64,000 nucleotides of DNA from NCBI GenBank assembly GCA_963780865.1, contig CAWADT010000006.1, positions 20,858-84,857 of the forward strand. The letters run 5' to 3'. Numbering within the stretch: the stretch's first letter is position 1; every line of letters starts with the position of its first letter. Source of the stretch: an uncultured Chloroflexia bacterium. GTDB lineage: Bacteria; Chloroflexota; Anaerolineae; Anaerolineales; RBG-16-64-43. Positions 3,966-59,998 of the stretch are shown here, in pieces. The position numbers and the translations under genes are program-made. The notes below the pieces were generated by a model that did not search any database, had not been told where the DNA came from, and saw nothing but the letters and a program-made list of their open reading frames with translations.

Positions 3966-4011
3966 TTATTAAGTTCTTCTTCGTGCTTTTCGTGTCCTTC
4001 GTGGATTTTCT

Positions 4012-10979: not shown

Positions 10980-11056
10980 GCCGTATCTCTACCGATGGCT
11001 TGAGGTTTTCGGCCCGAACAAAACGGGATTATTTTTCCGGGAAGTGACTTCTATCC

Positions 11057-18406: not shown

Positions 18407-18417
18407 GCTGCTCCCGC

Positions 18418-32963: not shown

Positions 32964-33730
32964 ATGTGGACCGGACGAAGAATCCCCTACCTGTATAATA
33001 AATACCTTCGAGGAGTCCGTCTGGATAAATCGCCCATCTTCATTGTTGGATGCGGCCATAGCGGCACTTCCCTGATACATGCAATTCTGGATTCCCATTC
33101 GAGAATATTTGCCATTCCTCCCGAGACTCGCGTCGGATTTAGAAAAATCCCGAGCCTTGGTTCCGTACATTCGCCTTTGCGACCATTAGCGCCGGGAAAC
33201 GCCGCTGGGTGGAGAAAACTCCCAAGCATATCCATCGGATGGAATACCTTTGGCAATTGCTCCCGGATGCAAAATTCCTTCTCGTCCTGCGCGATGGGCG
33301 GGATGTAGCTTGTTCCATCCAAGAACGAACGGGAGATTTGGAGTCCGGGATCCGGCGATGGGTGACAGACAACCTGGCCGGGGAGAAATATTGGGGAAAT
33401 CCGCAGGTTTGCTTGGTCCGATACGAGTTGCTTATCCTTGAATTCGAGAATACCATTGCCCGCATTCTGGATTTTCTCGGAGAGGAATATGAGGTTGGAT
33501 TAAAAGAATATTACCGCAAGCCCCGATTATTCTATGCGGATGTCATTGAAAAACCGGCCGGTATTTTTGGGGATAACCATGCTCAATACCGCAATTGGCA
33601 GATTAATCAACCGCTCTTCGATGGCCGTGGAAAATGGATGCGGATGACCGGAGAAGAGAAGCGTGTTTTCAAAGTATTGGCCGGCGAATTGCTGGAAAGA
33701 TACGGCTATGCCGACGGGATGGATTGGTGA
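32964..33730 (+). CDS. sulfotransferase; one frame break in an A5 run
   Basis: PIFIVGCGHSGTSLI (PSB loop) lies in ORF 32937-33308. WVEKTPKHIHRMEYL...FLLVLRDGRDVACS lies in ORF 33209-33730. The join is at AAAAA 33143-33147. Confidence 0.7.
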
Positions 33731-34158
33731 TTTTTCCTCGGTCCGTTATCCGCGCATTGCCGATTCGCAAAAGTCTTTTCTCCCGTCTCCCCTTTTTCGG
33801 GAAAAGATCGCCTTTGCCGAAAATCGCTGAGATATGATTGATGAAATGTATCGGCTCAGGCATAAACAATTTGTACGCGGATTTCTCGGAGAGCCGGATT
33901 TCCCGGAGGAATAGAAAAAGTATTATTCTCCCCTCATCTTGGAATTATCCGTAAAATCCGGAGAATCCGCGCAATCCGCGTACTGTTGATTTGAGATACA
34001 GGAAGTGCCCGAGTAGATACGATGAAATCATCCGAAAGGAAAAATATTTTCGGGCGATCTTCGGGTAGAATTAGCAGGGACAATTCCTGAAGCGGAGTTG
34101 GGGACGATGGGATTGGCATCGATTCGAATCCTGCGGGAGGAAGGCGCGAGGCTCCGGA

Positions 34159-34887
34159 ATGTCTTGGAACAGATGGTTCGGTGGGAAGAACGATAACCCG
34201 TCGCTGCCGCAAAACCGGAAAAGCATTCGGGTCCGCCCGATTCACGGTTGCGATGTTTTTCTGGATATTAACCATCGTCTTCCCGGGCTATCCATGGAGA
34301 CGATCTTTGATGTTGGTGCAAACATCGGACAATCGGCTCAGGAATACCGGCGCCGCTTTCCAGCGGCCGATCTGTACTGCTTCGAACCGGTGCCTTCCAC
34401 GTTTCAAGAGCTTTGCAAGAATCTGGAGGTATCGGATAAAACTCACGCCTTTCCACTGGCTTTTGGTTCCAAGCCGGGGCGCGTCGGCGTCGTCCTCCAA
34501 TCCCATTCTTCCATTAATTCCTTGCTGAATACAGTGGAGCCACCGTTCCCGGAAGGAATCCAGGCGGAAATCGTTGATGTCGACACGATGGATAATTTCT
34601 GCCGCATCCACGAGATCTCGCAGATGGATTATCTGAAAATCGACACCGAAGGCTATGATTTGGAAGTATTAAAGGGAGCGGAGGACCTGTTGCAACGGCG
34701 ATGTGTGACGTTCATTCAGGTCGAAGCCGGAATGAACCCGTACAACCAAAAACATGTCCCCCTGAAAATCCTCCAGGATTTCCTGGAGGCGCATCACTAT
34801 GTGTTGTTCGGCCTGTATGACCAAACGTTTGAATGGCGCGGCGAGGCCAGGTTGCGCTTCCTCAACGCCGTTTTCATCCTTTCCTAA
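34159..34887 (+). CDS. FkbM family methyltransferase
   Basis: IFDVGANIGQSAQEY ... YCFEPVPSTF ... MDYLKIDTEGYDLEVLKGA. Confidence 0.8.
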   Translation: MSWNRWFGGKNDNPSLPQNRKSIRVRPIHGCDVFLDINHRLPGLSMETIFDVGANIGQSAQEYRRRFPAADLYCFEPVPSTFQELCKNLEVSDKTHAFPLAFGSKPGRVGVVLQSHSSINSLLNTVEPPFPEGIQAEIVDVDTMDNFCRIHEISQMDYLKIDTEGYDLEVLKGAEDLLQRRCVTFIQVEAGMNPYNQKHVPLKILQDFLEAHHYVLFGLYDQTFEWRGEARLRFLNAVFILS

Positions 34888-34952
34888 TTTCCCGGCGGGA
34901 GGAGCGCTGCGTACGGCCAGCGGCGGGTTCTCTCCGGAAAAAGGAAATATCC

Positions 34953-37312: not shown

Positions 37313-38312
37313 ATGGCCACGTATGTTCCACCAACGCAACGCCGCGAAAAGAGCCCGCATCTTCCCTTCGGCGAAATGCGCCAGACGCCGTTTTACGGAA
37401 AAGACATTCTTTCCGTCTCGCAGTTCGACCGCGAAAAACTGGAATACGTCTTCGGCGTCGCCGAGGAGATGCGTTCGATGGTCGAGCACGTCGGCACCTT
37501 CGACCTGCTCAAGGGGAAAATTCTCGCCAACCTGTTCTATGAACCGTCTACCCGCACCTCGTCGTCCTTCATGGCGGCGATGCAGCGGTTGGGCGGAAGC
37601 GTGATCCCCATCAACGAAGTGCGATACTCCTCGGTGGCCAAGGGAGAATCCCTGCCCGATACGGTGCGCACGCTGGAATCGTACGCCGACGTGATCGTCA
37701 TCCGCCATCCGGAAGTGGGTTCCGCGGCGATCGCGGCGATGTACGCGCGCAAGCCCGTGATCAACGCCGGCGACGGCGTGGGCGAGCATCCCACCCAGGC
37801 GCTGCTGGACCTCTTCACCATCCGGGAGGAACTCGGCCGGACGGATGAGTTGACCGTGACGATGCTCGGCGACCTCAAATACGGCCGCACGGTGCATTCG
37901 CTCTCGCGGCTCCTGGCGCAGTTCCAGACGAAACTGCATTGCGTCTCGCCGGATATCCTGCGCATGCCGCCCGAGTTCGTGGCCGAATTGAAAATCCAGG
38001 GGATGTCCATCCAGGAGCACACGAACCTGGACGAGGTTCTGCCGGAAACCGACGTGCTCTACGTCACCCGCGTGCAGAAGGAGCGGTTCGAGGACCAGGC
38101 GGTGTATGAATCGGTCAAGGGCGCGTTTGTCGTCACGCCCGAAATCCTCAAGCTTGCCAAGGACCAAATGATCGTGATGCATCCGCTCCCGCGCGTGGGG
38201 GAGATCGCGATGGACTGTGGACGCCGATCCGCGCGCGGCCTACTTCCGCCAGATGGAATACGGGCTGTACATCCGCATGGCGCTCCTGGCGATGGTGCTG
38301 GGGAAAGCGTAG
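37313..38312 (+). CDS. pyrB: aspartate carbamoyltransferase catalytic subunit; one frame break near 38216
   Basis: [30 protein letters not shown]. After dropping one T in ATGGACTGTGGAC the C-terminus reads [32 protein letters not shown], with TAG at 38310-38312. Confidence 0.9.
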
Positions 38313-38313: not shown

Positions 38314-38367
38314 GGACCATGGACCATGGACGATGGACCATGGTCGATGGCCCATCGTCGATGGTCT
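38314..38367. repeat. short tandem/dyad array built on ggaccatgg / cgatgg units
   Basis: ggaccatggaccatggacgatggaccatggtcgatggcccatcgtcgatggtc. A related array lies at 52641-52714. Confidence 0.55.
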
Positions 38368-38395
38368 TTCGTTCGAAAAGAAAGGGAACACTCCG

Positions 38396-39789
38396 ATGAC
38401 GAAATTCTCAAGCTTGCTGGATCAACGCGCCCGCAAGGTTCGTTCCCTGCTCTGCGTAGGCCTGGATCCGCATCCGGAACTCCTGGCCCAGCCGACGGCC
38501 AGTGCGGCGCTGGAATTCTGCCTGCGGATCATCCGCGAGACGTCCGATCTGGCGCTGGCGTTCAAGCCCAACAGCGCGTTCTTCGAGGCGTTCGGGCCGG
38601 AGGGGATCCGGGCGCTGCAGGAAGTGATCGGCGGCGTGCCGCGAAACTGGGTGTGCCGGTGATCCTCGACGCCAAGCGCGGGGACATCGGCGACACTTCC
38701 AAAGCGTACGCGCGCGCGGCGTTCGAAACGCTCGGCGCCGACGCGCTGACGGTCAATCCGTACCTGGGCGGCGATTCGGTCGCGCCGTTTCTGGAACAGG
38801 AGGAGCGCGGCGCGTTCATCCTTTGCCGCACCTCGAACCCCGGCGCGGCCGATCTGCAGCTGCGGCGCGTGGACGGCGTGCCGCAGTATGAGACGGTGGT
38901 CGCGCTGGCGCGGAAGTGGAACACGCGCGGCAACGTCGGTCTGGTGGTGGGCGCGACCGACCCGGCGGCGATCGCCCGCGTGCGCGCGCTCGCCCCGGAC
39001 CTGTGGCTGCTGGTGCCGGGCGTGGGCGCGCAGGGGGGCGACCTGCGCGCCGCGGTGGAGGCCGGAATGCGCGCGGACGGCCTGGGCGTGGCGGTGAACG
39101 TCTCGCGTTCGCTTGCCAAGGCGGCCAGCCCGCGCGCCGAAGCCGAGAAGCTCGTTGCCATAATGCGCGATGCGATGACGGCGACCCGTCCAAAATCGGA
39201 TCCGGTCGTGCCGGAGCATCTGGAGGTGGCGGAAATTCTCAGCGCGTCGGGTTGCGTCAAATTTGGCAATTTCACGCTGAAATCCGGAAAGCAATCGCCG
39301 ATCTACTTGGACCTGCGCCAGCTGGTGTCGCATCCGGAGCTGCTGGCCCGCGCGGCGGCGGTGTACGTCCCGCTCCTGCGCGAAATGAAATTCGACCGCA
39401 TCGCCGGGCTGCCCTACGCCGCGCTGCCGATCGCGACCGCCATCAGCCTGCAGACGGGCTGGCCGATGATCTACCCGCGCAAGGAAGCCAAGGACTACGG
39501 CACCAAGGCGCAGATCGAAGGAGCGTACAAGCCGGGCGAACGGATCGCGATGGTCGACGACGTGGTGACCACGGGAGGCGCCAAGCTGGAAGCGCTCGAA
39601 AAATTGCGCGGCGCGGGCCTGGTGGTGGAGGACCTGGCGGTGCTGGTCGACCGCGAAAGCGGCGGCGCGGACAGCCTGCGCGAGATGGGCGTGCGCCTGC
39701 GCGCCGCGGCGCGCCTCCGCGATCTACTCCCGATCTGGCAATCGCAGGGAAAACTCACCGCCGAGCAGGTGGCGCAGGTGATGGCCTAA
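38396..39789 (+). CDS. pyrF: bifunctional OMP decarboxylase (N-terminal, long type 2) / orotate phosphoribosyltransferase (C-terminal); one frame break
   Basis: [27 protein letters not shown] is in the frame of ORF 37313-38662. The protein then continues as [14 protein letters not shown]... in ORF 38326-39789, joined at about 38625-38650. The C-terminal half [19 protein letters not shown]...[14 protein letters not shown] is PyrE-like. Confidence 0.85.
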
Positions 39790-39973
39790 TACGCGTGGGT
39801 GGGATCGCAAAGCTCTATGGTCGTGGTCTATAGTAGATGCAGCCGGGATCGACGATCCCGGCTACGAGGAAAAACCAACCGACGCGGCCTAGAAGACGAG
39901 TCCCAGCTCGGAAAACACTGCGTAGTCTATCGCGGCGCAGAAAACTGCACCGGGAGTGGAATAACGAGTATTA

Positions 39974-40006
39974 AAACCGACGCGGTCTTTTAGACCGCGT
40001 CGGTTT
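39974..40006. terminator. bidirectional stem-loop aaaccgacgcggtc-tttta-gaccgcgtcggttt
   Basis: 14-bp perfect stem flanked by A and T runs, between convergent pyrF-E and the WXG100 gene. Confidence 0.6.
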
Positions 40007-40079
40007 GCATGTGCAAGGCTGTTTATTTAGAATCTAGAATTATCCGTGAAATCCGTGTTTTACCCGTGCCCCCCGTGAT

Positions 40080-40337
40080 TTATTTCTCCTGCTCTGCCGT
40101 CATCCTCCGCAGTTGGTCCGCGGATTTCTTCATCGCGGCGGTATGCAGGTCGACGCCCTTGCGCCAGTCGCCGTAGAAGCGGAAGAACGCTTTTTGCGCG
40201 TCGCCCTGCCATTTCGGCTCCACTTCCTTGACGGCTTTGGCGATTTTTTCCGCCGCGTTCTGGATTTGGGCGTTTGCTTCGTCAATTTCCTTAAGGAACT
40301 TGGTGATCTCTTCGGGATTGAAATCGATAACGGCCAT
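40080..40337 (-). CDS. WXG100 (ESAT-6-like) family protein
   Basis: 85 aa, two predicted helices with a central W-Q-G (EPKWQGDAQKAFFRFY). Confidence 0.8.
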   Translation of the reverse strand: MAVIDFNPEEITKFLKEIDEANAQIQNAAEKIAKAVKEVEPKWQGDAQKAFFRFYGDWRKGVDLHTAAMKKSADQLRRMTAEQEK

Positions 40338-40358
40338 GTTTACCTCGCGGCGGAAAAA

Positions 40359-40688
40359 TTAACCACTGCCTCTTTGATAAGCTTCCCAATCGGGATTGAC
40401 GTACTGCTCCCGGCGGGTAACCTTGATCGTGCGGAAATATTTTTCCTGCTTGATCAGATTTTCAAGCTGGGGGATGATTTTCCTTTTATGAGGATCGATC
40501 TCGGAGATAAAAGAATCCTTCCGGTGCCCCTCCCAGTTGAAATCCAAAAACTTGGCGGAGGATTCCACCCTGTCCTTTTCCATGGTTAATAGGTGGATCT
40601 GCGCGAGAATTTTATCCGCCAGGCGGTCAGCCTCGGGCGGATGGAAGAGGACATCACGATATAGGTATTGTGGAGGTATGGAAGCCAT
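40359..40688 (-). CDS. WXG-like small helical protein, probable partner of 40080-40337
   Basis: 109 aa. Central NWEGHRKDSF (W-x-G). Located 21 nt upstream of the WXG100 gene on the same strand. Confidence 0.55.
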   Translation of the reverse strand: MASIPPQYLYRDVLFHPPEADRLADKILAQIHLLTMEKDRVESSAKFLDFNWEGHRKDSFISEIDPHKRKIIPQLENLIKQEKYFRTIKVTRREQYVNPDWEAYQRGSG

Positions 40689-40799
40689 TGGTCCCCCAAA
40701 TACATAGTTGAAATGGATTATAAATCATGATATTATCAATGTCAATAGATCACCGGCAAGTTTATAGAATTATTTTCAGAACGACAAAGAGGGGACATT

Positions 40800-41630
40800 A
40801 TGGCGCGCATCCGGGTCGATACAGACGATCTTAAAGCCAAAGCCAAGGATTTCGAAACGGCCGCCAATGCATTTAACAAGGCAGGCGATGAGATCGCCGC
40901 CGCCGCGATGGGGATGCCGAGCTACGACGGCCAGCTTTCGGGCCCGGCCCGCGCGGCGGGATACGAAATCCAGCGCCAGAGCCGGGAAGTGCAGGCCCTC
41001 CTCGCTGGCGATGCGCAATCGCTGCAAAAGACGGCGCAGGCGTTTGAAGAGGCGAATAATCAGGCCATTGATGCATTTGGACAAAACCAAGAATTACTTG
41101 CCTCACATACCCCTGATAAGCTGCAAGGAATTGATATCGGAAATGCCTATCTTGGGTACCGGGATGATGGTCTGAGTGAGACAGTTATCCTATGTATGTA
41201 TGGCGTTTGCAATGTAATCCCGCGCAAGGGTAATGAATTGGTTATTGCAGACTTTGAGAAAAAGGTCGATGATTATGTGAAAGATGAGAAAACAATGTGG
41301 GATGAATGGAATAAAACTGTAGAGGCGGCGGTTATCGCATCGGGTTTATTAATTGGATTAACAATCATTACGGGAGGAACTGCTGCATTCGTCGCCGCAG
41401 GTTTGGGGGCGGCAGGTTCCATAGGTGGTGAAATCCTTGAATCGAAGGCCTGTAAAGATGCTCAGACAGATATGGCGAAGGATACTTATGGTGCAGCCTA
41501 TTACTGGAACATAATGTTTGGAAGCAAGGGTCTTGGACCGTGTACCACAGGGGATGATATTCAGGATCCAGTTGATCTTTGGAAACGGCAAAATCAAGAT
41601 ATTTATGATCCAACGGCACCTTGCACTTAA
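40800..41630 (+). CDS. polymorphic-toxin-like protein: WXG100/LXG-like helical N-domain plus an AT-rich C-terminal domain with a glycine-zipper membrane segment
   Basis: N-terminal 90 aa form a helix-turn-helix hairpin (RVDTDDLKAKAKDFETAANAF...SYDGQLSGP...LQKTAQAFEEAN). The C-terminal part carries AAVIASGLLIGLTIITGGTAAFVAAGLGAAGSIGG. RBS AGAGGGGA precedes the ATG. Confidence 0.65.
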   Translation: MARIRVDTDDLKAKAKDFETAANAFNKAGDEIAAAAMGMPSYDGQLSGPARAAGYEIQRQSREVQALLAGDAQSLQKTAQAFEEANNQAIDAFGQNQELLASHTPDKLQGIDIGNAYLGYRDDGLSETVILCMYGVCNVIPRKGNELVIADFEKKVDDYVKDEKTMWDEWNKTVEAAVIASGLLIGLTIITGGTAAFVAAGLGAAGSIGGEILESKACKDAQTDMAKDTYGAAYYWNIMFGSKGLGPCTTGDDIQDPVDLWKRQNQDIYDPTAPCT

Positions 41631-41664
41631 GAACCGTGCAATCGAATGAGATAGAGAGGTATTT

Positions 41665-42161
41665 ATGGACTTTCATCAAATATTAATTTATCTCAATGGG
41701 TTATTCTTTCTTGTAGCGGCATTATTCCAATTTTATCTTTTGCTGCGAGGCAGAGTTTTTTAATTAGATTAAGTATTCTTTTTTTACTTTGTTGTTTCCT
41801 AAATTCATGGATTATTCTATTGGATCTATCCTCATCTCGGGGTTTTGATTTATATGAAGGTCTCCTATTATGCCTACTTATTTTCATATTTATTGTTGTC
41901 CTCTTGGACGAAAGACAACGGAGAATATTCTTTGGGATTAGTCTAAATCATTTTATGTTGGCAATTAATGATTACCTAAATAAGAACGATTTGAAATATA
42001 AAAAAGAATCATTGACGATTATATCTATTAATAATCCCCTAATAGTATTTGATCTCAAGCCTATTCTAGGAAACCTTGGAACAATGATATCACGAAGAAT
42101 GGATAAGAATATAAAGGAGGATTCAAATTACAACCATTATTTTCCAATAGAATCTGATTAA
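41665..42161 (+). CDS. small polytopic membrane protein, candidate immunity protein; probably needs a 1-nt correction in a T6 run
   Basis: ATG 41665 gives MDFHQILIYLNGLFFLVAALFQFYLLLRGRVF*. A shift in TTTTTT (41756-41761) continues as LIRLSILFLLCCFLNSWIILLDLSS...LLLCLLIFIFIVVLL (ORF 41820-42161). Confidence 0.4.
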
Positions 42162-42171
42162 GAATATTAAA

Positions 42172-42273
42172 ATGAATTGGCCTAGCAAAATATCCATATT
42201 CTTGCTCTTTTGTATTTTTTCTCTGCTTCTATATATATTTTTAATTTCAAATGGAATTCACATTTCGTTTTGA
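42172..42273 (+). CDS. 33-aa hydrophobic peptide (speculative)
   Basis: MNWPSKISIFLLFCIFSLLLYIFLISNGIHISF. A single TM-length segment, too short to score. Confidence 0.2.
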   Translation: MNWPSKISIFLLFCIFSLLLYIFLISNGIHISF

Positions 42274-42295
42274 CATTTATTGAGGAGGAAAAAAA

Positions 42296-42925
42296 ATGGA
42301 AAACCAATCTTATAAATTATCGAAGCGGGCCGAGGGCTATTTTTCTACCATAAAAGAAAAGATGATGGAATTGAATGAGAAGATGGAATCCAATTTACTA
42401 TTAGTGAAAGATGAAAACCAATATGTACATATTGTTATTAATGGTAAGCAAAGAATTCAATCAATGGTAATTTCGGATTTATTACTAAATTCAAAAGATA
42501 AGCAAGAAGTTTGTCGATATCTTCTCGGAATAATCAATTCCGCAATACAAAAATCCAATTTTGATAACCTAATAAATGCGCAAAAAACTATTTCGGTTAA
42601 AGAATATCATGAAATGATTAATCAGGAAAAACAATCTATAACTGAAACAATAAAGGGAATGGAGAAGTCATTTCAGGCGGAATTGAATGAATTAGCATAT
42701 ATTAAGAAACATACGATTTCGGACGCCGGAAATATATCAGTGGTGATGTCTGGATTGCAGCAAATACAATTATTGGAAATTGATCCTCTCTATATTACGA
42801 GTGAAAACAAAAATAAGTTAATAAATGAAATTATTGAGGTTGTTAATAAAGCCACGATTGAAATTCAAAAAGAAGCTATTGATAAAATAAAGCAACAAGA
42901 TAATGAGTTATTACAATTATATTGA
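42296..42925 (+). CDS. protein made of two tandem YbaB/EbfC-like domains
   Basis: Domain 1: IKEKMMELNEKM...ENQYVHIVINGKQRIQSMVISDLLLNSKDKQEVCRYLLGIINSAIQKS. Domain 2: ISDAGNISVVMSGLQQIQLLEIDPLYITSENKNKLINEIIEVVNKATIEIQKE. Both follow the E. coli YbaB pattern G.V.V..NG......v.IDP.ll..d...LedLi..A.N.A. RBS GAGGAGGA. Confidence 0.6.
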   Translation: MENQSYKLSKRAEGYFSTIKEKMMELNEKMESNLLLVKDENQYVHIVINGKQRIQSMVISDLLLNSKDKQEVCRYLLGIINSAIQKSNFDNLINAQKTISVKEYHEMINQEKQSITETIKGMEKSFQAELNELAYIKKHTISDAGNISVVMSGLQQIQLLEIDPLYITSENKNKLINEIIEVVNKATIEIQKEAIDKIKQQDNELLQLY

Positions 42926-42997
42926 TATAATTAATTAATGAAAAACATTTAGTGATTAATTGCAATCTCCGATAGCAATATTATCAATAAATCCTGT

Positions 42998-43918
42998 TTA
43001 CACCGCTTTTCCAATCAGCTCGCGTATCGATTTCACCCCATGTTTCAGTAAATATTGTTGCATTCCCTTCGCCGTCGTTTCAAACACGTTCGGCTGACGG
43101 AACATCGCCGTTCCGATCCCGACGCAGGTTGCGCCAGCCAGGATGAGCTCAAGCGCCTCCTCCGCGTTCGTCACTCCGCCCAGGCCGACGATGGGGATGT
43201 TGTTTTTCTTGCAGCAGGAGGTGTAGCATTTGTACACCGCGTACACGGCCACAGGGTGAATGCCTATCCCGCTCAAGCCTCCGATCCGGTTTCCAAGCGC
43301 CGGTTTCTGCGTCTCCACGTCGATCGCCATGCCGCGCAGCGTGTTGATCACGCACAACGCGCCCGCCCCGCCGCGGATCGCCGCCTGGGCGATCGCGGCG
43401 ATGTCGGTAACGTTCGGCGTCAGCTTCACGATCAGCGTCTTCCCCAGCACCACCTTGCGGACCCGCGCGACGAGATCCTCGAGCACCGCTTCATCGCAGC
43501 CGAATTCGATCCCGCCCTTTTCAAGGTTCGGACACGATACATTGAGCTCAATCGCATGGATTTCCTCGCGCGGGGCGAGGATTTCCGCGCACTGGACGTA
43601 TTCGTCGATTTCGGATCCGGAGACGCTCGCGATTACGGGAACCTCGAGCTTCCGCAGCTTGGGGATTTCCTCCGCCACGAAAGCGGCGATGCCCGGGTTC
43701 TGTATCCCGATCGCGTTAAGCATCCCGGCCCGCGTTTCGACGATGCGCGGTTCCGGATTGCCCGCCCGCGGATGGAGCGAGACGCTTTTGAGCACGGCCG
43801 CGCCCATCCAGGGGCGGCTCGCGGCGAGCGCTTCATAGTCCAGGCCGTAGACGCCCGACGCCGAGAGCAGCGGGGTCTCCAGACGCAGCGATCCGAGACG
43901 GGTTTCTAATCCTTCCAT
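42998..43918 (-). CDS. pyrD: dihydroorotate dehydrogenase (class 1B) catalytic subunit
   Basis: Start at ATG 43918 (MEGLETRLGSLRLETPLLSASG). NAIGIQNPG, ELNVSCPN, GGLSGIGIHPVA. Confidence 0.9.
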   Translation of the reverse strand: MEGLETRLGSLRLETPLLSASGVYGLDYEALAASRPWMGAAVLKSVSLHPRAGNPEPRIVETRAGMLNAIGIQNPGIAAFVAEEIPKLRKLEVPVIASVSGSEIDEYVQCAEILAPREEIHAIELNVSCPNLEKGGIEFGCDEAVLEDLVARVRKVVLGKTLIVKLTPNVTDIAAIAQAAIRGGAGALCVINTLRGMAIDVETQKPALGNRIGGLSGIGIHPVAVYAVYKCYTSCCKKNNIPIVGLGGVTNAEEALELILAGATCVGIGTAMFRQPNVFETTAKGMQQYLLKHGVKSIRELIGKAV

Positions 43919-44889
43919 GGGATGTCCCTCGCTTCGAAGACCGGCCCTTCTCGGCAGACCCGCTTGCGGGAAATTGTGCCGTCCGGCCCGATCACCCGGG
44001 TGGTGCAGGAGTAACAGGAGCCCACTCCGCACGCCATGCGTTTCTCGAGCGTAACTTGGCAGTCCAGGGAATGGCGCGCGGTAATTTCCGCAACCGCGCG
44101 CAGCATTCCCTCCGGTCCGCAGGCGTACAGGCAAACGCTTTCGCGCGGAACGCAACCGTCGCGGAGGCCCTGCTCAAGCATTTCGGTGACGAGGCCCTTC
44201 TCTCCAAGCGACCCGTCGTCGGTGCATACGGTCAGCACCCGGGCGCCGATCTCGTCGAATTCCGAGTGGATTGCGTCGTAGAGAGCCTGATCCTCAACCT
44301 GGCCTCCCATTTCCGAATTGCTGGGCGTCGAGCTGACCGCCAGGCTGAGCATTTCTTTTTTCACCGCGCCAAGGTAGATCAGGACTTCCTTGCCGTGCTG
44401 CCGCAGCCGCTCCGCGAGCGCCGCCAGCGGCGCAACGCCTATGCCGCCCGCGACGATCACGGCTGTGCGGGCCGCGCCGATGGCAAATCCGTTTCCGCAC
44501 GGACCGATCGCGCGGAGGACCGCTCCCCGGCGGGTGCGGCTCAGGATGTCCGTTCCTTCGCCTGCCACCCGGTATAGAAAATCGATCCGGGCGGGATGAC
44601 GGGCGATCGCTTGGCGCAGCTCCTCCGGCAAATCCTCGGCCTGGGCGAGCGCCGCGCGGTGAAAATGGGGATACTCCGCGCGATGAATGCTGAGCGGCCG
44701 CCTCAGGGTCAGCGGGTAGGCGCGCGGTTTCCCAACCTCCGGATCGCACAGGACGTGAAAAAACTGGCCCGGAAGAAAATCCAACTGCGCGGCTTTTGGA
44801 AGCTCCAATTCGATGAGGAAATGCCCCTCGCAGATTTTTCTGTTTTGCACGACCTTGAGTTTGAGGTCGCGGATCGGCGAAGCGTTTAT
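43906..44889 (-). CDS. pyrK: dihydroorotate dehydrogenase electron-transfer subunit; start uncertain
   Basis: RRPLSI, GPCGNGF, VAGGIGVAP, and C-terminal 2Fe-2S MACGVGSCYSC. The ORF stays open to 45189, but homology begins near IRDLKLKVVQNRKI (about 44880). No canonical start codon is nearby except GTG at 44850. Confidence 0.8.
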   Translation of the reverse strand: MNASPIRDLKLKVVQNRKICEGHFLIELELPKAAQLDFLPGQFFHVLCDPEVGKPRAYPLTLRRPLSIHRAEYPHFHRAALAQAEDLPEELRQAIARHPARIDFLYRVAGEGTDILSRTRRGAVLRAIGPCGNGFAIGAARTAVIVAGGIGVAPLAALAERLRQHGKEVLIYLGAVKKEMLSLAVSSTPSNSEMGGQVEDQALYDAIHSEFDEIGARVLTVCTDDGSLGEKGLVTEMLEQGLRDGCVPRESVCLYACGPEGMLRAVAEITARHSLDCQVTLEKRMACGVGSCYSCTTRVIGPDGTISRKRVCREGPVFEARDIPWKD

Positions 44890-44911: not shown

Positions 44912-45424
44912 TCAAGGAAATCGCCGATACGGTGCGAAGGGCCTGGGAAGATCGGCGTCCGGAGCGGTATCTCTATGACGCCACGCGCAAAAGCGGCGTT
45001 CCAATTCAAGATAGGAAAGGCCGCCCCATTCGGAAACGGTTCCGTCGCGTCCCAGACTCGCAATTCGAATTTCGGTTTTTCCAAATGTGAAACCGACGCT
45101 CCGTTTTGCAGACGTCTTCCAGGCGATTTTTCCGGGAATGTTTTGCGAAGAGCGGACGGAATAACCAAGCGCTTTGCCCCACTCGCCAAGCAGGGCGGCG
45201 GTCCGTTTCCGCCGGTGGCGCAGAATTTCCGCCACCGTAAGGCTTTGGCGAATGGCGGATACGTCCTCCACCGTCAGGCCGTCTTGGCTAAGACGTTCGA
45301 CCGCCAGATGGCGGGCGGCGGCTATGTCGTCCGGGCTCCCCGCCGCGAGCGATTCCGCGTCGAGGACGATCCGGCGCCAATCTCTCTGGGATGTCCCTTC
45401 GCCCGGCAGTCTTGCCTTTTCCTT
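44912..45424 (-). CDS. unresolved open frame between the methyltransferase and pyrK; possibly the methyltransferase C-terminus after a frame slip
   Basis: A frame open for 171 codons reads KEKARLPGEGTSQRDWRRIVLDAESLAAGSPDDIAAARHLAVERLSQDGLTVEDV...GKALGYSVRSSQNIPGKIAWKTSAKRSVGFTFGKTEIRI. No family recognised. It begins at the A4GGA4GG tract where the methyltransferase frame turns to nonsense-like sequence. Confidence 0.3.
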   Translation of the reverse strand, partial: KEKARLPGEGTSQRDWRRIVLDAESLAAGSPDDIAAARHLAVERLSQDGLTVEDVSAIRQSLTVAEILRHRRKRTAALLGEWGKALGYSVRSSQNIPGKIAWKTSAKRSVGFTFGKTEIRIASLGRDGTVSEWGGLSYLELERRFCAWRHRDTAPDADLPRPFAPYRRFP

Positions 45425-47016
45425 TTAATGAACGCTAGCTTGTCGTTCCGATAGCGCGCGAAGGGGGCGGCTGCGGGAAGGAGAATTTCATCGATCGGAG
45501 ATTCCGGAAGGGCGGCAATTTCTTCCCGATCGAGCCGTTGGTAAAAAGACCGCAGGATTTTATCGGCCGTGATCTTATTGCCATAGAGGCCGAACAATTC
45601 GCGTGCCGCGGCGGCCGCCTTTTTATGGAGCCTTTCCGCAGGAACTCCTATGACCGGCCCCGTTTGTTTTTTAATTACCGGCGCGCGCACCACGTATCCG
45701 CTGTTTTGCGATCCGTTGCCACCCGTCCCTGGCTGGTAGTGGATGTGTTCCGCCGCCAATCCGCCGCTCGCAAGGATGCCCAGGAACTGCGGAAAAAATT
45801 TTCCGCCGGAGTTTGCGCAGAAAAAATGCGCGCAGCTTCCTTCCTTGGCGACGCGGTGGAGCGCGCGTACAACGATGGACATCCGCTCGCGGTATTGATC
45901 GACGCTCCGGCCGCTTTCCGGGGCAATGACAATTTCCCGGCTGTGATCGAATTCCATCTTCAGCCAGGCCGCCTGGATGGCCGGCAGGAGGAACATGTCT
46001 CCGGGGGCTTCGAACGGCGGTTCCGTCAACACATAGTCGATGGAATTCTCGGGTAGTTCACAAATCAACGCATCCTCGGCGGATTTCCCCAGGATCACCA
46101 CGCTGGCCTGCCGCGATTCCAGCTCTCCATAACCGTAGCCAATCGTGGCGCGGTTTAAAACGGAATTGCTTTCCTTTTTTCCGTCGTAAATTCTTTGGAA
46201 GCTCCCGGCAAACGCGTCCCAGGGGTTTGCCACCGTGCATTTTTGCACCCCGCTTCGCCGGACCGATTGTTTTTCCTTCGCACGGCCCCGCGCAGCGGCG
46301 GTCGCCCGAGGAAGCAGCGGAAAGGGGCAATGGCATGCGGCCAAAGAGGAAGCGAAGGCTGATTTCATCGCATCCCGGACGGAAGGTTCGGTGATATTGT
46401 TGATCGAATTTAAAATGATGGAGAACGCGGCAACCGTCCGGCGGCGAAGAAAATCAGCGGGATACCCCCAGCTTGCGTCCGGATTCACCGGTAGGGGTAG
46501 GCGGGTCGGATGCCAGAAGGGGATGTCCGTGTCCGCGTTCTCCACTTCCACCCGCCGGTCGCCCGCATCGGGTGTTTTCGAAAGCCTTGCCGGGGAACAG
46601 GGGCAGGAATAATCCAACCGGGTTAGTTTCCCGTTTTCCCGGTGAAGGACATGCACGATGCCTTTTTTACCGCATTTCGGGCAGGTTGTCGCGAACAGTT
46701 CGGAGATCACGTCCCGGCAAGTTTCGCGGAGGTCCTCGTAAGCCCATTGCAGCCTCGGGAGGCTGACGGGAGTGAAAACTACTTCGGTGAAAAAGGATGC
46801 CAGGGGACTGGGATCAGTCGTCACCGCCCGGCGGCCCAAGCGCAAGGCTTCGATGGCCGTGGTTCCGTTGCCGCCGAATGGATCGAGGACGACGTCGCCT
46901 TCGTTGGTGTATGCGCGGATGAGTTCCGCGGCCACCGCTGGGGGCAGGTTTCCGCCGCGGGGATGCATCGCTTGGATCGGGTCGCTGCCGGCGCCGGCCG
47001 GCAAATCAGATTCCAT
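45322..47016 (-). CDS. Zn-ribbon-containing N6/N4 DNA methyltransferase-like protein with permuted motif order (AdoMet motif first, then xPPF)
   Basis: HPRGGNLPPAVAAELIRAYTNEGDVVLDPFGGNGTTAIEALRLGRR (motifs X-I), CPKCGKKG...CPC (Zn ribbon), IDYVLTEPPF (motif IV-like, with E instead of D/N/S). Confidence 0.7.
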   Translation of the reverse strand: MESDLPAGAGSDPIQAMHPRGGNLPPAVAAELIRAYTNEGDVVLDPFGGNGTTAIEALRLGRRAVTTDPSPLASFFTEVVFTPVSLPRLQWAYEDLRETCRDVISELFATTCPKCGKKGIVHVLHRENGKLTRLDYSCPCSPARLSKTPDAGDRRVEVENADTDIPFWHPTRLPLPVNPDASWGYPADFLRRRTVAAFSIILNSINNITEPSVRDAMKSAFASSLAACHCPFPLLPRATAAARGRAKEKQSVRRSGVQKCTVANPWDAFAGSFQRIYDGKKESNSVLNRATIGYGYGELESRQASVVILGKSAEDALICELPENSIDYVLTEPPFEAPGDMFLLPAIQAAWLKMEFDHSREIVIAPESGRSVDQYRERMSIVVRALHRVAKEGSCAHFFCANSGGKFFPQFLGILASGGLAAEHIHYQPGTGGNGSQNSGYVVRAPVIKKQTGPVIGVPAERLHKKAAAAARELFGLYGNKITADKILRSFYQRLDREEIAALPESPIDEILLPAAAPFARYRNDKLAFIKRKRQDCRAKGHPREIGAGSSSTRNRSRRGARTT

Positions 47017-54900: not shown

Positions 54901-57472
54901 CTACCCCGCGGAGGATGGCCGGGAATCCATAAACGGCTGCCCGACCTGGACCGGCAGCAGAATGAAGAAGGTGGTCCCATGCCCGAGCTGGCTCTCCAGC
55001 CAGACGCGCCCTCCCATGGCCTCGGCCAGGGTGCGCGCCACCGCCATCCCCACGCCGGTATCCCCCAGCCCTTCGATCAAAGGCCCTTCCGTCCGATAGA
55101 GCCGGGTGAAAACGCGCGGTTGGTCTTCGGCGGCGATGCCGGGCCCGCTGTCTTTGACCGTGATCAGCATGGCCCGCTGCTGGTTTTGCGTGGCTTGCGG
55201 CGAATGCGCGGTCAGGACGACTTCTTTGTCCGGCGCCGTAATTAAAACGGCGTTTTGAATCAGGTGGTTGAGGATTTGCTGCAGCGCGTCGCGGTCGATC
55301 TCGACCGGCGGCAAATCGTCCGATACGTCCAGGTGCAGCACGAGATTCTTTTCGCGGACGATTTCACTCACGCCGGTGATGGCGCCGTCGATGATGCCGG
55401 CCACGTCCACCGGCTGCATCGGCGGAGCGGCAATCTTTTCCGGCAGCAGCAGCAATTGCAAAAGGTCTTCGAACAGCGATTCGGTCCGGGTGATGCTGGC
55501 GCGGATCCGGTCGAGGAATTTTCGTTGCATGGCGCCCAGGATCCCCGCCGATTCCGACAGCAGCAGGTCGGTGTACCCTACCATGGAGGAGAACGGCTGG
55601 CGAATTTCCGAAATCAAGCTGGTGACCATGGCGATATCCGCGTGGAAGCTGGGTTTCTTTCCCGCTTCCGGAGGCAGGGGCGGTTGAAGCAAAGCGGATT
55701 GCAGATGGGCGTATTCTCCCAAAGTCTTGCGCAATTCGTTTTGGATGTTGGAAATTTCCGCTTGATAGCGGTTCTCGGTTTCCTCGAGCGCCCTCCGCAA
55801 GCCCTGAGTCTCCGTGTCGGAAGAGGGTTGGGCCGGGGAAGCCGCCGTTCCCTCCGCCCGGAGATGATCGAGTTCGGACTGCAGGGCGCGGTTTTCATTC
55901 TCCAGGGCGGTGGCGGCGGCGACCATTTCTCCAGCGCGCGCCGAATCTTGGCGTGAAGTTTCCAACTCCGCGCGCGCCTTCCGCAATTCTTCCTGAAGCC
56001 GGACAATCGAAGCATCGATTAAGCGCCTTCCGCCGTCCTCTTCGCCTTCCGCTTCCCCCTCCGCCGCCAGAGAGTCCTGCTCCTGCACGAGCGATGCCAA
56101 TCCTTCGGCGCGTTGGCGTTCCTCGCGCCACGCTTCCTCGGCCTGCTGGCGTTCCGTCTCCAGGTTCATCTTCTCCGTCTGCAGGTGTTCATTTTCCTGT
56201 CCCGCCTGAAGGAGGGTTTGCCGGATTTCCTCCAATTCCACGGTTATTTTATTCCGCGCGTGGATTTGCTGGAAGGCGGCGGCGCAGGCCTGGGCGAATA
56301 GACGCGCGGCGGATTCGTCCTCGTCTCGCCATTCCTCGTCGGAGTAGGAAGCCAGCAATAAAATGCCGACGGCGGGTTCCTCGGAAAGCGCGAGGGGAAC
56401 GAACAACACCGGCCCGGTGCGGGCCAGCCCCGCTTTCTCGGCGACGGCTTGCAGGGTTGCGCCCGCCTCCGTCTTCTCCAGCCGCAAGGTCTCCCGGCCG
56501 GCAAGCGCAAAATGAAGTTGCGGGACGGCGTCGGACGTCAATTGAAAAGCGGGCAGTGCGGCGGCGCTGATCCGGTCGAACCCGGCGATGAAATCCACTC
56601 CGTTGCCCTGCTGCGTGTTGGCCAGGAAGTAACTGGCTTCCACCTGCATCGCGCTGCAAACCCAGGCGGTCATGGCCTGCGGAAGGTCCGGCTCTTCCAG
56701 GGTCAGGATTAGGTCCGAGAGCGGCGGGATGGATTCAGACGCGGCTAGTCTGGCTTGCCTGGCCTGGCTGCCTCCGCCGGTCAGGGCTGCGCCGGAAGCC
56801 GTGGAAAGCGAAAACCGCATCGCCACGAGCGGAAAAGCAAACAGATTAAACAATCTGGCCAGGCCGGGAAGATTGGTGGAGCCGTCCCCGAGCATCACTT
56901 GCAGACTGGTTCCGGCCAGCAGCAGCAGCAGCGCCAGAAGGGAAAGGCCCCATCCTGCGGGCCGGCGGATCAGAAGCAGCAAGCCACCCGCGAGGATCAC
57001 AACCCAGCGCGCGGAATCCCAGATCAGCGAAAGGATGTTGGCATTGAACGCGCCGGTGGCCGGATTGAGATAGAGGAAGACAAAGGATCCGGCGGCGCCG
57101 AGGATCGCGAGGAGCGCAGCGCCGATCATCATCCCGTCGCCGGTCTTGCTCCGGCGGGGAAAAAGGAAGAACCAGACAAGCGCCAGGGCGACCAGAAGTT
57201 CCAGCGCCCGATCGCCGTTGGCCTGGAGGGAGGGCAGCGCGGGCGAGTTCTATATAGGAAGGAAGCAGATCGCCCACCAGGCCGGCCGTTTCCAGAAGGA
57301 GAATTGAACCGGCCAGCAGCAGACCGCGCCTCCATTCCCAGCGCGGCTTCTTTGCGACGAGCAGGAACGCCGAAGCGAGCGCAGTCAGGAGGATCCAGGC
57401 GCGGAAGAAAATAAAACCGGGAACGCCGAGCAGAAATACTTCGTAAGTGTGGAGTGAGACGGCCATAGCCAA
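54901..57472 (-). CDS. membrane GAF / coiled-coil histidine-kinase-like protein with Ser at the phospho-acceptor position; one frame break
   Basis: HATPase N/G1/G2 boxes are intact (LIQNAV, DSGPGI, GDTGVGMAV). The DHp helix reads LISEIRQPFSSMVGY, with TCG at 55609-55611 where H is expected. The N-terminal TM region in ORF 56846-57472 joins at GGAGGGAGGG 57225-57234. Confidence 0.75.
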
Positions 57473-57508: not shown

Positions 57509-59998
57509 CTATTCTTTGGGATGTTCGGCGTGCATCGTGCGCAACGCCCACAAGGCTTCGAAGGCCGGGCTGCGCACGGAACTTTCGCCGTCGCTCAATC
57601 CCATGCACAAATCCTGAAGGAACCGGTTCTCGGCCATGGCACCGAGCGCTTCCACCGCGGCGGCCCGCTGGCGCGGTTCGCCCTCGCGGATCGCGCGCTC
57701 GAGCATGGCCAGGGTGGGCGCGCCAGGCGCGAGGCCCGTCTTTCGCTGTGCGGCAAACGACACCAGCCAGGGCAAATTCGCGGGGGATGGCATGGGAACC
57801 AGCGGGCTTTCGGATTCTCCATGCAGCCGTTCCACGGCCTGCGCGGCCGCCGACTTCACCGCCCACTGTCCGTCTTCTATCTGCACCCGTTCGAGGATTT
57901 CCAGCGCCCAGGGTTGTCCGGTGCGCGCCAGACCGAAGACCGCAGCGCGGCGGACCAGTAGTTCCGCGTCCTGGATGGCTTCCCGCAGGATGCCGTGCCC
58001 TTCGATCGGATCCAGGGATAGTCCCTCGGCGACGGCGCGGCGCAGATCGTCCTCGCCCTGAAGGAGGGTTTGGCCCAAGACGTCGATGGCGGCGTGGGAA
58101 GCGATCCGGCCGAGGGCCAGCGCGCCGGCCCAGCGCAACTCCCGCGAATCGGATTCCATTTGTTTGGAGAGCAGCTCCACAGCGCTCTGGTCGGCCATCG
58201 CCCCCAGGCCCAGCGCCGAAAGGATCCGTGCTTCCAGGTCGGAATCCGGAGCAGAGAGAAGCTGCCGAAAAAGCTGGGTGGCGGATGAGTCGCGGCTGTT
58301 GAGGAATGCGGCCAGCGCCCGGGCGCGGAGCGGAAATGGCTGGCTGGGAGTGCGCACCACTTTCATCAACCGGCGGAAAACCTCCACGCGCCATCCGGCG
58401 GTGGGCGGGGCATCGCGCAGCCAGGCGGCCACGTGAAGCAGTTTCCAGCCGTCCTCCACCAGCGGCGGCATCCGCGGCTCGCCGGATGCGGCCTCGCCTT
58501 CCTTTATTAAGGTTGGCGTGAGCCGGGCCGAGACGAGCGTGGCGACGTCGGTTTGCGCCGCCAGCGCGGTAGCCGAAAGCTCCGCCAGAGGCGTGCGGGA
58601 GCTCGCGAGAAACGCCGGCAGGTTTGCCTCGTTGCCCAGGGCGAGGGAGGAAAGCCGCGCGGCGATGACGATGTGGCCGAAGCTGACCCGCCCGGCGGGC
58701 CGTTTGCGCAACACGCCATGCGTGATCATCTCATCGAAGAAATCTTCCACGGGCGGGAGTGATTGTTCCGAATGCGGCCAGGCCAGCGCCATCGCGGTTT
58801 CCACTTGCTTGCGCGTGGGGGCGGAAATATTTTCGGCGATCATCCCCCGCACCACCTGGGCCAGGGCTTCTTCGGCGGCCGGAGGCAGGTGGCGGGTGAC
58901 GTAGGCTTGTTGGTCGGAAGCCGCCGTCGTTCCCTGCAAATCCCCGCTGAAGGCCGCCCAGGCTCGGAGGGTGATATCGAGCGGTGAAAGGCCAAGCGTT
59001 TGCCGGGAGAGCCAGCCGAGCAGCAATGCGGGATCCGCCTTTTCGGTCGTCTTCCGGTCCGAGACCACGATTTCCTGCCAGCGCTTCCCCCATTGTTCCA
59101 GGAACCTGCGATGATCCGCGGGCAGCCAGGGGGCCGGAGTGGCGACCGCGAACCCCATCGGCCGCCAGTGATTGATTTCCTCGGGATCGACCGTGATGAT
59201 CAGCCGCGCCTTCGGATATTGGGCCATCAGCGAGCGGACCCACTCGCGCACTTCGTCCTGGGCGGAGTAGGAGAGCTCGTCGACGGAATCCAGGAGCAGC
59301 AGCGAACCTTCGCTTTTTAGGTTGCCCTTCAAGTAAGGGGGAATTTGAGACGCGGAAAGGGTGGAGGCGTAGTGCTGGATGGCCGACTCCAGCGGCACGA
59401 GCGCATCTTTGGTTGAATTCGGCAGGGTCAGATCGTGCGCGTTAACATAGAATAGCGATTTGGGAATTCCGGCGGCCGGGGCGCCCGTCTCCACCGACCG
59501 GCGCAACCACTCGAGGGTCAACGCGGCGAGCACGGTCGACTTGCCGCTTCCCGGCAGACCGGCCAGGAGAAGTTGCGGTTTGAGCGAAAGCAACTGCGTG
59601 ACGGGGATTCCGACCGTGCCGTACGATTCGGCGAGCTGCGGCCAATCGGGTGCGAAGGGGAAGAGGGTCGGCGCGTCGTATTCCGGGGGCTGGTCCGGAT
59701 CCAAAGGCGGCGGAGCGGCGAGAAGGCGCGGCGGAAGCAGGATCTCTTCCAGCGCAAACAGGTGGGTGACCATGTGCGACGATTGGGCCCACCGCATCAG
59801 GTCGTTGCGATACCCCTGGGCTGCCGTGGTGGTTAAAGCTTCCAGGGCGGTCCGGTAGGATTCCCCCATGGCTTCCCGGAACGATGCGATCCGCGGGCGG
59901 AGCCGGAAGAGCACGAAGGCCAGCAGGACGGCGAGGAGGAATCCGATCCAAAAGGAAAGCGAATCAAATCGCCAGTCGGTGAGGAATTTCATGCTCAT
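57509..59998 (-). CDS. STAND NTPase: N-terminal TM helix, NACHT-like P-loop module, C-terminal HEAT-type repeats
   Basis: Walker A GLPGSGKSTVL, Walker B LLLLDSVDEL, C-terminal repeated ...RRAA...ALG... units. Start at ATG 59998 (MSMKFL) overlaps the upstream TGA as ATGA. Confidence 0.75.
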   Translation of the reverse strand: MSMKFLTDWRFDSLSFWIGFLLAVLLAFVLFRLRPRIASFREAMGESYRTALEALTTTAAQGYRNDLMRWAQSSHMVTHLFALEEILLPPRLLAAPPPLDPDQPPEYDAPTLFPFAPDWPQLAESYGTVGIPVTQLLSLKPQLLLAGLPGSGKSTVLAALTLEWLRRSVETGAPAAGIPKSLFYVNAHDLTLPNSTKDALVPLESAIQHYASTLSASQIPPYLKGNLKSEGSLLLLDSVDELSYSAQDEVREWVRSLMAQYPKARLIITVDPEEINHWRPMGFAVATPAPWLPADHRRFLEQWGKRWQEIVVSDRKTTEKADPALLLGWLSRQTLGLSPLDITLRAWAAFSGDLQGTTAASDQQAYVTRHLPPAAEEALAQVVRGMIAENISAPTRKQVETAMALAWPHSEQSLPPVEDFFDEMITHGVLRKRPAGRVSFGHIVIAARLSSLALGNEANLPAFLASSRTPLAELSATALAAQTDVATLVSARLTPTLIKEGEAASGEPRMPPLVEDGWKLLHVAAWLRDAPPTAGWRVEVFRRLMKVVRTPSQPFPLRARALAAFLNSRDSSATQLFRQLLSAPDSDLEARILSALGLGAMADQSAVELLSKQMESDSRELRWAGALALGRIASHAAIDVLGQTLLQGEDDLRRAVAEGLSLDPIEGHGILREAIQDAELLVRRAAVFGLARTGQPWALEILERVQIEDGQWAVKSAAAQAVERLHGESESPLVPMPSPANLPWLVSFAAQRKTGLAPGAPTLAMLERAIREGEPRQRAAAVEALGAMAENRFLQDLCMGLSDGESSVRSPAFEALWALRTMHAEHPKE

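Follow-up and report, generated by a model that had tools for sequence, protein, structure and literature searches.

A sharp GC step inside a putative type VII-style effector gene of Anaerolineales probably marks a recurrent head–tail recombination junction

Chloroflexi are among the carriers of type VII polymorphic toxins with WXG/LXG heads (PMC3482391). In Staphylococcus aureus, the LXG head of EsxX is bound by two Lap proteins and its glycine-zipper tail depolarises membranes; the soluble ExiAB pair sequesters the zipper in the cytoplasm of the producer and the polytopic ExiCD proteins protect against the incoming toxin (PMC12744356). The YbaB-fold proteins EspL, EspD, and EspH are proposed ESX chaperones in mycobacteria (PMC6109436), which stay cytoplasmic and stabilise specific substrates (PMC6109436, PMC6319747). 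A change in G+C content (GC) that bounds swapped tips is known from Rhs proteins (PMC2935791). Here, we report a gene for a 276-amino-acid protein (open reading frame, ORF, 40800–41630) in a 64-kb window, i.e., the whole stretch of 64,000 nucleotides analysed here, taken from contig CAWADT010000006.1 of assembly GCA_963780865.1. It belongs to what is probably, judged by its genes, a five-gene, type VII-style effector module inserted in a GC-rich Anaerolineales genome, as an island between pyrF/E and pyrD inside the pyr cluster (Table 1). GC drops abruptly within this gene, and our data support that the composition step is the junction joining a tail-plus-downstream cassette to a conserved targeting head. 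Our reading, to which we give a probability of roughly 0.8, is that AT-rich tail cassettes have recurrently been recombined onto a conserved WXG100-fold head at codons 81–90.

The locus resembles the WXG/LXG/LDXD polymorphic toxins (Zhang, Aravind et al. 2012, PMC3482391) in its helical N-terminal trafficking domain and variable C-termini, its adjacent WXG100 partners, the co-variation of downstream genes with the tail, and a diversity driven by recombination. Unlike in those toxins, the head in the window is about 90 amino acids long, a bare WXG100 hairpin without W-x-G and with no Pfam LXG; the tails of the family are mostly one membrane-hairpin scaffold and not nucleases or deaminases; the window's cassette includes a tandem YbaB-like protein; and no secretion ATPase was seen in the 64-kb window or the flanks fetched. 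With EsxX, TelE, and TspA, LXG toxins of Staphylococcus and Streptococcus (PMC12744356, PMC10434224, PMC7456083), the parts list agrees almost one to one: the locus and EsxX both have two small helical partners, a helical head, a small-residue hydrophobic tail, a soluble protein in the place of ExiAB, and a polytopic one in the place of ExiCD. However, neither sequence nor fold homology could be detected for the tail, for the soluble partner, or for the membrane protein; the phyla differ; and the soluble partner would have a YbaB fold where ExiAB has an SHS2/GyrI-like fold.

As for the way in which the gene is put together, a parallel is the C-terminal displacement of Rhs and CdiA proteins (Jackson et al. 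2009, PMC2935791), in which a conserved core meets a variable tip at a short hyperconserved motif, the tip is recombined along with its immunity gene, GC changes at the tip boundary, and remnants are left behind. The protein family and the secretion route are nevertheless unrelated, the conserved part here is only 90 codons long, and the window has no orphan tips downstream. The ESX-1 proteins EspL, EspD, and EspH (PMC6109436, PMC6319747) are comparable in that they, too, are YbaB-like products of type VII loci; each has a single domain and lies outside any swappable cassette, whereas two YbaB-like domains per chain, co-varying with the tail, are predicted here, and the likeness is one at the Pfam domain level.

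The step was located by maximum likelihood over ORF positions 40800–41627. A single change-point was placed at nt 41043, with a GC of 0.642 on its left and 0.441 on its right. When only third codon positions were considered, the change-point fell at codon 81, where the GC of these positions (GC3) drops from 0.74 to 0.36 (log-likelihood ratio, 16.7). In 5000 permutations of the codons this ratio was never matched, the permuted maximum being 11.9. Because the step is present in GC3, amino-acid composition does not explain it. GC3 in 10-codon bins across codons 61–100 reads 0.8, 0.7, 0.5, and 0.1, i.e., the change takes place within about 20 codons, at synonymous sites, and has the shape of a step and not of a ramp. 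The first-pass annotation of the window, made from the letters alone, had put the switch at about codon 80–85 on the basis of four hand-counted 60-nt blocks; its counts are exact (0.683, 0.40, 0.433, and 0.333), its position agrees with the computed codon 81, and the abrupt change it described is what the computed profile gives. It had further placed the switch exactly at the head–tail domain junction. This is correct for the conserved sequence, since the step position is the 3' end of the conserved head-coding part (codons 81–90, ..AQAFEEANNQ), but not for the predicted structure, in which it lies inside helix 47–101, some 15–20 codons before the linker at residues 102–110. Among the 37 ORFs of the window that were tested, two others score as high as this gene (3914–4906 and 17633–18730), and both were rejected as genuine GC3 steps, being reading-frame artefacts: the former is a frameshifted atpG and the latter carries an out-of-frame 5' extension.

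As the first-pass annotation had also stated, the low-GC state reaches the pyrD stop at 42998; it does so in two tiers, the tail (GC 0.45, GC3 0.37) being followed by a segment at 41630–42998 with a GC of ~0.29 and a GC3 of 0.28. The flanking host pyr genes have a GC3 of 0.76–0.82 and the host one of 0.79, and GC never falls under ~0.47 in the rest of the 64-kb window, ordinary accessory genes included. One has to ask whether an AT-rich foreign fragment was simply mis-joined into a GC-rich contig, the more so as the assembly is error-prone, with frame breaks in pyrB, pyrF, atpG, and the membrane-protein gene of the module. However, the ORF is uninterrupted across the junction and can be aligned over its whole length with ~20 full-length homologues whose assemblies are independent, host pyr genes lie on both flanks, and the identical step is found in 31 of 31 relatives. 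The junction is also reproduced in an independent short-read assembly (L047), which is 99.5% identical over window positions 39457–42015; since L047 carries the same junction, the step is no assembly chimera, and we regard a mis-join as having a negligible chance of being right.

Of the 79 homologues returned by the protein search, nearly all come from metagenomes or from metagenome-assembled genomes of Anaerolineales, and some are annotated as "type VII secretion target" or YukE. The head (residues 1–95) is common to all 79, at 50–86% identity. The window's type of tail is found in about 25 of them, and the others bear different tails, one of which is a calpain-like peptidase (Peptidase_C2, 44.7 bits). 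For a survey of the step we used 33 distinct members from genome and metagenome loci, 31 of which have a tail of at least 60 amino acids. Head GC3 exceeds tail GC3 in all 31, and none is uniform in composition (means, 0.63 vs 0.35; Wilcoxon p = 9e-10, where p-values overstate independence because the family samples are phylogenetically related). Aligned at the start codon, mean GC3 is 0.55–0.78 over codons 1–80, 0.45 over codons 81–90, and 0.31 over codons 91–100, after which it stays flat at ~0.35. The change-point of the individual genes has its median at codon 82.5 and falls in codons 77–89 in 21 of 30 genes, irrespective of tail type. The DNA downstream of family members has a GC of 0.27–0.49 vs 0.54–0.65 in the flanks. 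The least-stepped members, P0008 and P0010, go from a GC3 of ~0.8 to 0.68 (tail, 0.65–0.69), and their hosts have a GC3 of 0.93. The step marks a recurrent junction, family-wide, and dates no single event in the window genome.

That this junction is one of recombination is supported by comparisons in which head and tail were treated separately. In a three-way comparison of informative sites, window residues 1–108 side with the homologue from locus L002 by 20:5, and residues 126 onward side with that from locus L006 by 38:3 (Fisher p = 1.7e-9, uncorrected for scanning), i.e., the closest relative flips at the junction. The neighbouring genes are divided likewise: the WXG100 and 109-aa proteins have their closest counterparts in L002, and the membrane and YbaB-like proteins have theirs in L006. 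Over 3160 pairs of family members, head and tail identities are uncorrelated (r = 0.05); some pairs have heads 96–98% identical and unrelated tails, and others have tails 97% identical on heads that are 67% identical. Two pairs display the exchange in their DNA. L045 (5398–6303) and L046 (6579–7556) are syntenic and come from related samples, with flank DNA 92% identical across 3.9 kb; their identity is 97% through the WXG100 gene, the 109-aa gene, and the head, and collapses at toxin codon ~90. P0005 and P0006 are the mirror image, with 60–87% DNA identity over codons 1–80 and 90–100% from codon ~81. The identity of the YbaB-like protein follows that of the tail (rho = 0.60) far above that of the head (rho = 0.24). 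Across loci, the WXG100 protein is 82–92% identical and the membrane and YbaB-like proteins are 26–51% identical.

These comparisons also bear on whether any exchange is needed at all, as a fast-evolving tail and its downstream genes might drift in situ to an AT-biased mutational equilibrium, through weak constraint or a selective preference for AT-rich rare codons, with the constrained head keeping a host-like GC. It is true that the order of GC3 values parallels the order of conservation (WXG100 protein 0.73, head 0.71, 109-aa protein 0.59, tail 0.37, downstream genes 0.28) and that a process acting constantly would make the step universal, as it is. But such drift is at odds with a change at synonymous sites that is complete within about 20 codons of a single ORF, with the flip in the ranking of relatives at the junction, with near-identical tails on 67%-identical heads and vice versa, and with the ordinary accessory genes of the window, which do not fall below ~0.47 GC. 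The tails of P0008 and P0010 at a GC3 of 0.65–0.69 indicate, moreover, that AT-richness is not needed for function. We consider in-situ divergence quite improbable.

In the reading we prefer, recurrent recombination of cassettes onto the head, the last conserved head codons (..KTAQAFEEVDNQ) would supply the homology for the crossover, the GC step at codons 81–90 would be the recurrent crossover site, and the unit exchanged between loci or genomes would consist of the tail, the polytopic membrane protein, and the tandem YbaB-like protein. A GC-rich pool of heads and an AT-rich pool of cassettes would give the same step at the same codon in every member. The first-pass annotation had proposed that a foreign toxin domain with its downstream immunity genes was swapped onto a resident targeting domain. 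Recombination at the junction stands, on the mosaic, the shuffling of heads and tails, and the two swaps, and the co-variation of the YbaB-like protein with the tail agrees with downstream genes being swapped along with it; but the "foreign" part is the family's own AT-rich cassette pool, and one of the supposed immunity genes encodes the tandem YbaB-like protein.

A possible home of this pool was found among the relatives. On the AT-rich contigs L016, L024, L025, L026, L028, and L033, there are attC-like repeats of 129–143 nt, bounded by GCCCAAC...GTTGGGC, which fold as long imperfect hairpins with compensatory changes and bulged bases. As the bulged bases defeat a strict regular expression with an ungapped-stem test, the repeats were identified by folding and with a covariance model (R1). 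With this model, 19 attC-like sites were found in the six contigs, all in gene orientation (seven copies in L024 and four in L026), whereas the window and the GC-rich loci have none; Rfam gave no match on the attC-bearing contigs. One site follows each gene or gene pair, every L024 gene being separated in this way, and cassettes of this kind contain members of the family, accompanied by a gene for a membrane protein or for a YbaB-like protein. The RYYYAAC/GTTRRRY bounds, the hairpin, and the single orientation make these relatives similar to integron cassettes, although no integrase was seen on those short contigs. The tail subtype of L016 is that of the chromosomal locus L001 (75% amino-acid identity) and is equally AT-rich in both settings. 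It is plausible that the attC arrays are a mobile source of cassettes. A further-reaching proposal, which we offer tentatively and with more doubt than confidence, is a two-compartment Anaerolineales effector system in which cassettes shuttle between attC arrays and chromosomal type VII-style modules, with about 10 head codons as a dedicated recombination anchor. If true, integron arrays as a reservoir of polymorphic-toxin tips would be new, as would a tandem YbaB fold as a toxin-specific class of chaperone or immunity protein; among the papers covered by a full-text search, only one, an incidental review, mentions integron cassettes together with polymorphic toxins.

The same arrays make a contrast of "resident" and "foreign" too simple, since heads are GC-richer than their surroundings even there: at an array GC of ~0.38–0.41, heads have a GC3 of 0.50–0.56 vs 0.22–0.28 in tails. 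Amelioration of a "resident" head is accordingly not the whole explanation. One may instead regard the head as the outlier, in a family that is natively AT-rich mobile DNA and whose head GC is kept by frequent GC-biased conversion between copies, or by selection at the DNA or mRNA level for a recombination anchor; the step would then come from homogenisation of the head and not from import of the tail. Many synonymous head positions are indeed fixed across the family (codon 17 GAT 100%, codon 87 AAT 92%, codon 42 TAC 91%), which fits a recombination anchor or homogenisation by gene conversion, and by inspection mosaic breakpoints occur inside heads too (P0071, P0075, and P0006). In the window, however, the head GC3 of 0.71 is not above the host's 0.79 and equals that of the neighbouring WXG100 gene, which lies outside the swaps. 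We think it unlikely that the head is the outlier in this sense, although such a view can coexist with recurrent cassette recombination.

Several points weigh against recurrent cassette recombination as we have described it, in addition to the GC3 contrast within attC arrays and the relatedness of the surveyed members. The window's own event is read from a three-way comparison with homologues of 50–86% identity; we found no close relative in which the pyrE/pyrD site holds another type of tail, the mosaic is already present in strain L047 at 99.5% identity, and no downstream crossover of the cassette exchange was identified. We infer the direction and date of the swap in the window lineage. Most of the "different" tails are built on one scaffold (LGY..D...VI.W.NG, a hydrophobic hairpin, and ..WN.L), so a single domain that diverges rapidly, and not a set of unrelated modules, could account for much of their diversity. 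The tail matches no known toxin domain in Pfam, NCBIfam, the PDB sequence search, or Foldseek, and no EssC/FtsK-SpoIIIE ATPase was found in the 64-kb window or in the flanks of L001–L006, L045, and L046. Finally, L001 has no polytopic membrane gene, which weakens the assignment of this gene to immunity.

Turning to the protein itself, an AlphaFold (AF2) model was built from 29 homologues, with a mean predicted local distance difference test (pLDDT) score of 73. The head is modelled as helices 9–38 and 47–101, with the linker at residues 102–110 behind it. Foldseek matches the head only, to EsxA/EsxB structures (3zbh, 2vrz, 4lws, and 4j41), with a probability of 0.93–1.0 and template-modelling (TM) scores of 0.7–0.82, normalised to the target. 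In Pfam, the window's head stays below the WXG100 (PF06013) gathering score (14.5 bits vs 27.3); heads of relatives reach 17–25 bits, and three of them exceed the T7SS_ESX_EspC cut-off (24.1–24.5 vs 23.5). The turn PSYDGQLSGPA of the head is invariant but has no Trp, i.e., there is no W-x-G motif. LXG (PF04740) gave no Pfam match at E up to 1, and the head has only ~100 amino acids vs ~200 in LXG. Of the "WXG/LXG-like" label given earlier, the first half is borne out by the WXG100/EspC-like fold with its EsxA/EsxB matches, and the LXG half is not; the locus would work like an LXG toxin yet is no LXG family member. The conserved head is probably the targeting domain, which would bundle with the two small WXG proteins as an export signal, and the predicted route of the 276-aa protein would be type VII export.

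The tail is modelled as a four-strand beta-meander (residues 111–141, pLDDT >90), with G114, Y117, G119, Y120, C132, Y134, and C137 invariant in the alignment, followed by a long helical hairpin (146–191/195–239). The tip of the hairpin (176–210, nt 41325–41429) is hydrophobic, rich in Gly, Ala, and Ser, and contains glycine-zipper-like motifs. This hydrophobic hairpin probably inserts into membranes; from the model, the tail is presumed to be a membrane-inserting effector domain, and the hairpin and its zipper-like motifs suggest that it may be toxic to membranes. NCBIfam matches of the tail to SseG and alpha-xenorhabdolysin A (E = 0.003–0.009, 15–17 bits) are far under their cut-offs and were not used.

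Table 1. Features of the island and its surroundings in the 64-kb window (positions are those of the window; GC3, GC of third codon positions).
Feature	Position	Strand	GC	GC3	Remarks
Flanking pyr genes (pyrF/E; pyrD)	38326..39789; 42998..44155	+; -		0.76-0.82	
Inverted repeat, perfect 15 bp, 3-nt loop	39974..40006	.			100% complementary; between pyrF/E stop 39789 and WXG100 stop 40080
85-aa WXG100 protein	40080..40337	-		0.73	motif W43-Q-G; conserved module partner
109-aa protein	40359..40688	-		0.59	invariant W51-E52-G53
Predicted divergent promoter region, AT-rich	40689..40799	.			consensus scan and sequence
Head of 276-aa protein	40800..41069	+	0.62	0.71	codons 1-90; WXG100-fold helical hairpin (model)
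Composition step and recurrent recombination junction	41040..41070	+			codons 81-90, ..AFEEANNQAI
Tail of 276-aa protein	41097..41627	+	0.45	0.37	codons 100-276; beta-meander and long helical hairpin (model)
Polytopic membrane protein gene, ~205 aa	41665..42273	+	0.30	0.28	candidate membrane immunity protein
Tandem YbaB/EbfC-like protein, 209 aa	42296..42925	+	0.29	0.28	

Two small proteins are encoded upstream on the opposite strand. The 85-aa protein is a WXG100 member (Pfam, 43.1 bits vs a cut-off of 27.3; TIGR03930, E = 8.8e-11). The 109-aa protein has no Pfam family match; its gene adjoins the WXG100 gene in ~20 loci, and the WEG is invariant in an alignment of 11 homologues. With hhalign, this WEG is superposed on the WQG of the WXG100 partner, weakly (E = 0.012), and a profile–profile match of this strength was considered too weak to claim a WXG100 relative; by its sequence, the protein is probably a second small helical partner of WXG type. 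Between these genes and the 276-aa gene, consensus matching predicts a sigma-70 promoter on the − strand (12/12 consensus, 40745 to 40717) and another on the + strand (TTGAAA-17-TATTAT at 40708–40736), and a putative GAGGGG ribosome-binding site precedes the ATG at 40800.

Downstream, the membrane-protein gene is split over three frames in the window assembly, with breaks at a T-run at ~41755 and at ~42150–42170. The 208-aa protein of L006 matches it with 43–47% identity in three frame segments (tblastn), and the polytopic homologues in other loci are 204–208 amino acids long. L047 has one extra T at ~41755, with which the gene reads through, and ends before the second break. Mid-gene frame changes are also present in pyrB (38200–38230, the C-terminus being in another frame), in pyrF (38630–38660, the N-terminal part being out of frame with the remainder), and in atpG (~4230–4290, − strand), where the GC3 signal shifts to codon position 1 after ~codon 225. 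On the strength of the extra T in L047 and these similar breaks, we read the breaks in the membrane gene as assembly indels and not as gene decay; the changes in the housekeeping genes point to indel errors typical of long-read assembly, not to real pseudogenes.

The 209-aa protein matches Pfam PF02575 in two stretches (57.4 bits vs a cut-off of 25.5) and TIGR00103 with E = 2.7e-10 and 40.3 bits, under the equivalog cut-off of 49.45. Its single-sequence AF2 model is poor (pLDDT 50), and the tandem fold is deduced from the Pfam stretches. The homologue search with this protein returned the query itself as the sole match; among the 20 toxin genes with at least 1.2 kb of downstream DNA, 15 are followed by a YbaB-like gene. 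By analogy with EsxX, the membrane protein may confer immunity, and the YbaB-like protein is more probably a cytoplasmic chaperone or neutraliser.

At the left side of the island, window positions 39877–40006 contain two copies of a GC-rich 21-nt element (AACCGACGCGGYCT...). At the first copy (39877–39897), a terminator-like site was scored on the − strand, and the second copy forms the perfect 15-bp hairpin of Table 1, which from its sequence is probably a bidirectional terminator at the island's left edge. The element has no copy at the right edge, and a repeat search of the window showed nothing convincing around the island in the way of att sites or direct repeats.

The gene order WXG100 (−), 109-aa (−), toxin (+), membrane protein where present, and YbaB-like (+) is found in ~20 loci, at differing chromosomal sites and often beside a class II aldolase gene; a scan of the genome collection gave eight loci of the family. 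A tail behind any other head was found neither in a word-indexed search (18 matches) nor in an exhaustive HMMER search of 1.84 billion representative proteins. The HMMER scan with the tail gave 11 matches, 10 of them genuine representative clusters, all with a head of this one family in front of the tail; P0085, a repeat protein, was discarded as matching by chance. In the window, tblastn with the 79 homologues gave no further heads or orphan tails, with matches only at 40.8–41.6 kb.

Some loci of the family deviate from this layout. In L045, a second family head (7410–7691) follows the YbaB-like gene and a gene for an 85-aa membrane protein, giving tandem toxin genes. In L006, one WXG100/107-aa pair is flanked by two toxin genes, each with its own YbaB-like gene; one product of this locus, P0004 (8433–9080), is the closest relative of the window's tail (77% identity) and ends early, at 215 amino acids, inside the hydrophobic hairpin, which could be a truncation or an assembly error. 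P0056 (L004, 10001–11002) is an "orphan" member that lacks WXG100, 109-aa, and YbaB-like genes in its neighbourhood; after it come a 267-aa gene (GC 0.43) and then NurA and HerA genes of host composition. Head stubs were seen as well: a 66-codon truncated head lies immediately upstream of an intact head in L040 (1227–1424), and a 29-codon stub with an in-frame stop abuts bacA in L014 (6001–6087; the same as L042, 2347–2433), bacA being the gene after the complete module in L006. By their sequence, both stubs look like debris of deletion or displacement.

The mechanism is a known one, here well supported in a family that is new. For Rhs and contact-dependent inhibition (CDI) systems, it is textbook knowledge that C-terminal displacement can be seen from a change in GC, so our main finding is confirmatory and not surprising. 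What it adds is a one-gene, sequence-only marker of the recombination junction in a Chloroflexota polymorphic effector family. Secretion and interbacterial competition in Chloroflexota are almost unstudied. Since the step is universal at a fixed codon, scanning the genes of uncultured lineages for GC3 change-points could reveal such junctions with no domain models. We suggest that attention should go first to the link with attC sites and to the tandem YbaB-like partner.

A few other features of the window may be mentioned. Milder low-GC islands (0.47–0.52 GC) at 8300–11000 and 33200–34900 contain genes for Caps_synth-type glycosyltransferases, a sulfotransferase, and an FkbM methyltransferase, which have the look of common accessory genes for surface polysaccharides and bear no relation to the toxin family. 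Directly past a pyrK-like gene, a 564-aa protein with an N6/N4 DNA methylase domain is encoded at 45322–47016 (− strand). The gene at 57509–60022 (− strand) encodes 837 amino acids that combine a NACHT NTPase domain with HEAT repeats, a STAND-type architecture frequently associated with defence, and a histidine kinase gene (54901–57132) adjoins it.

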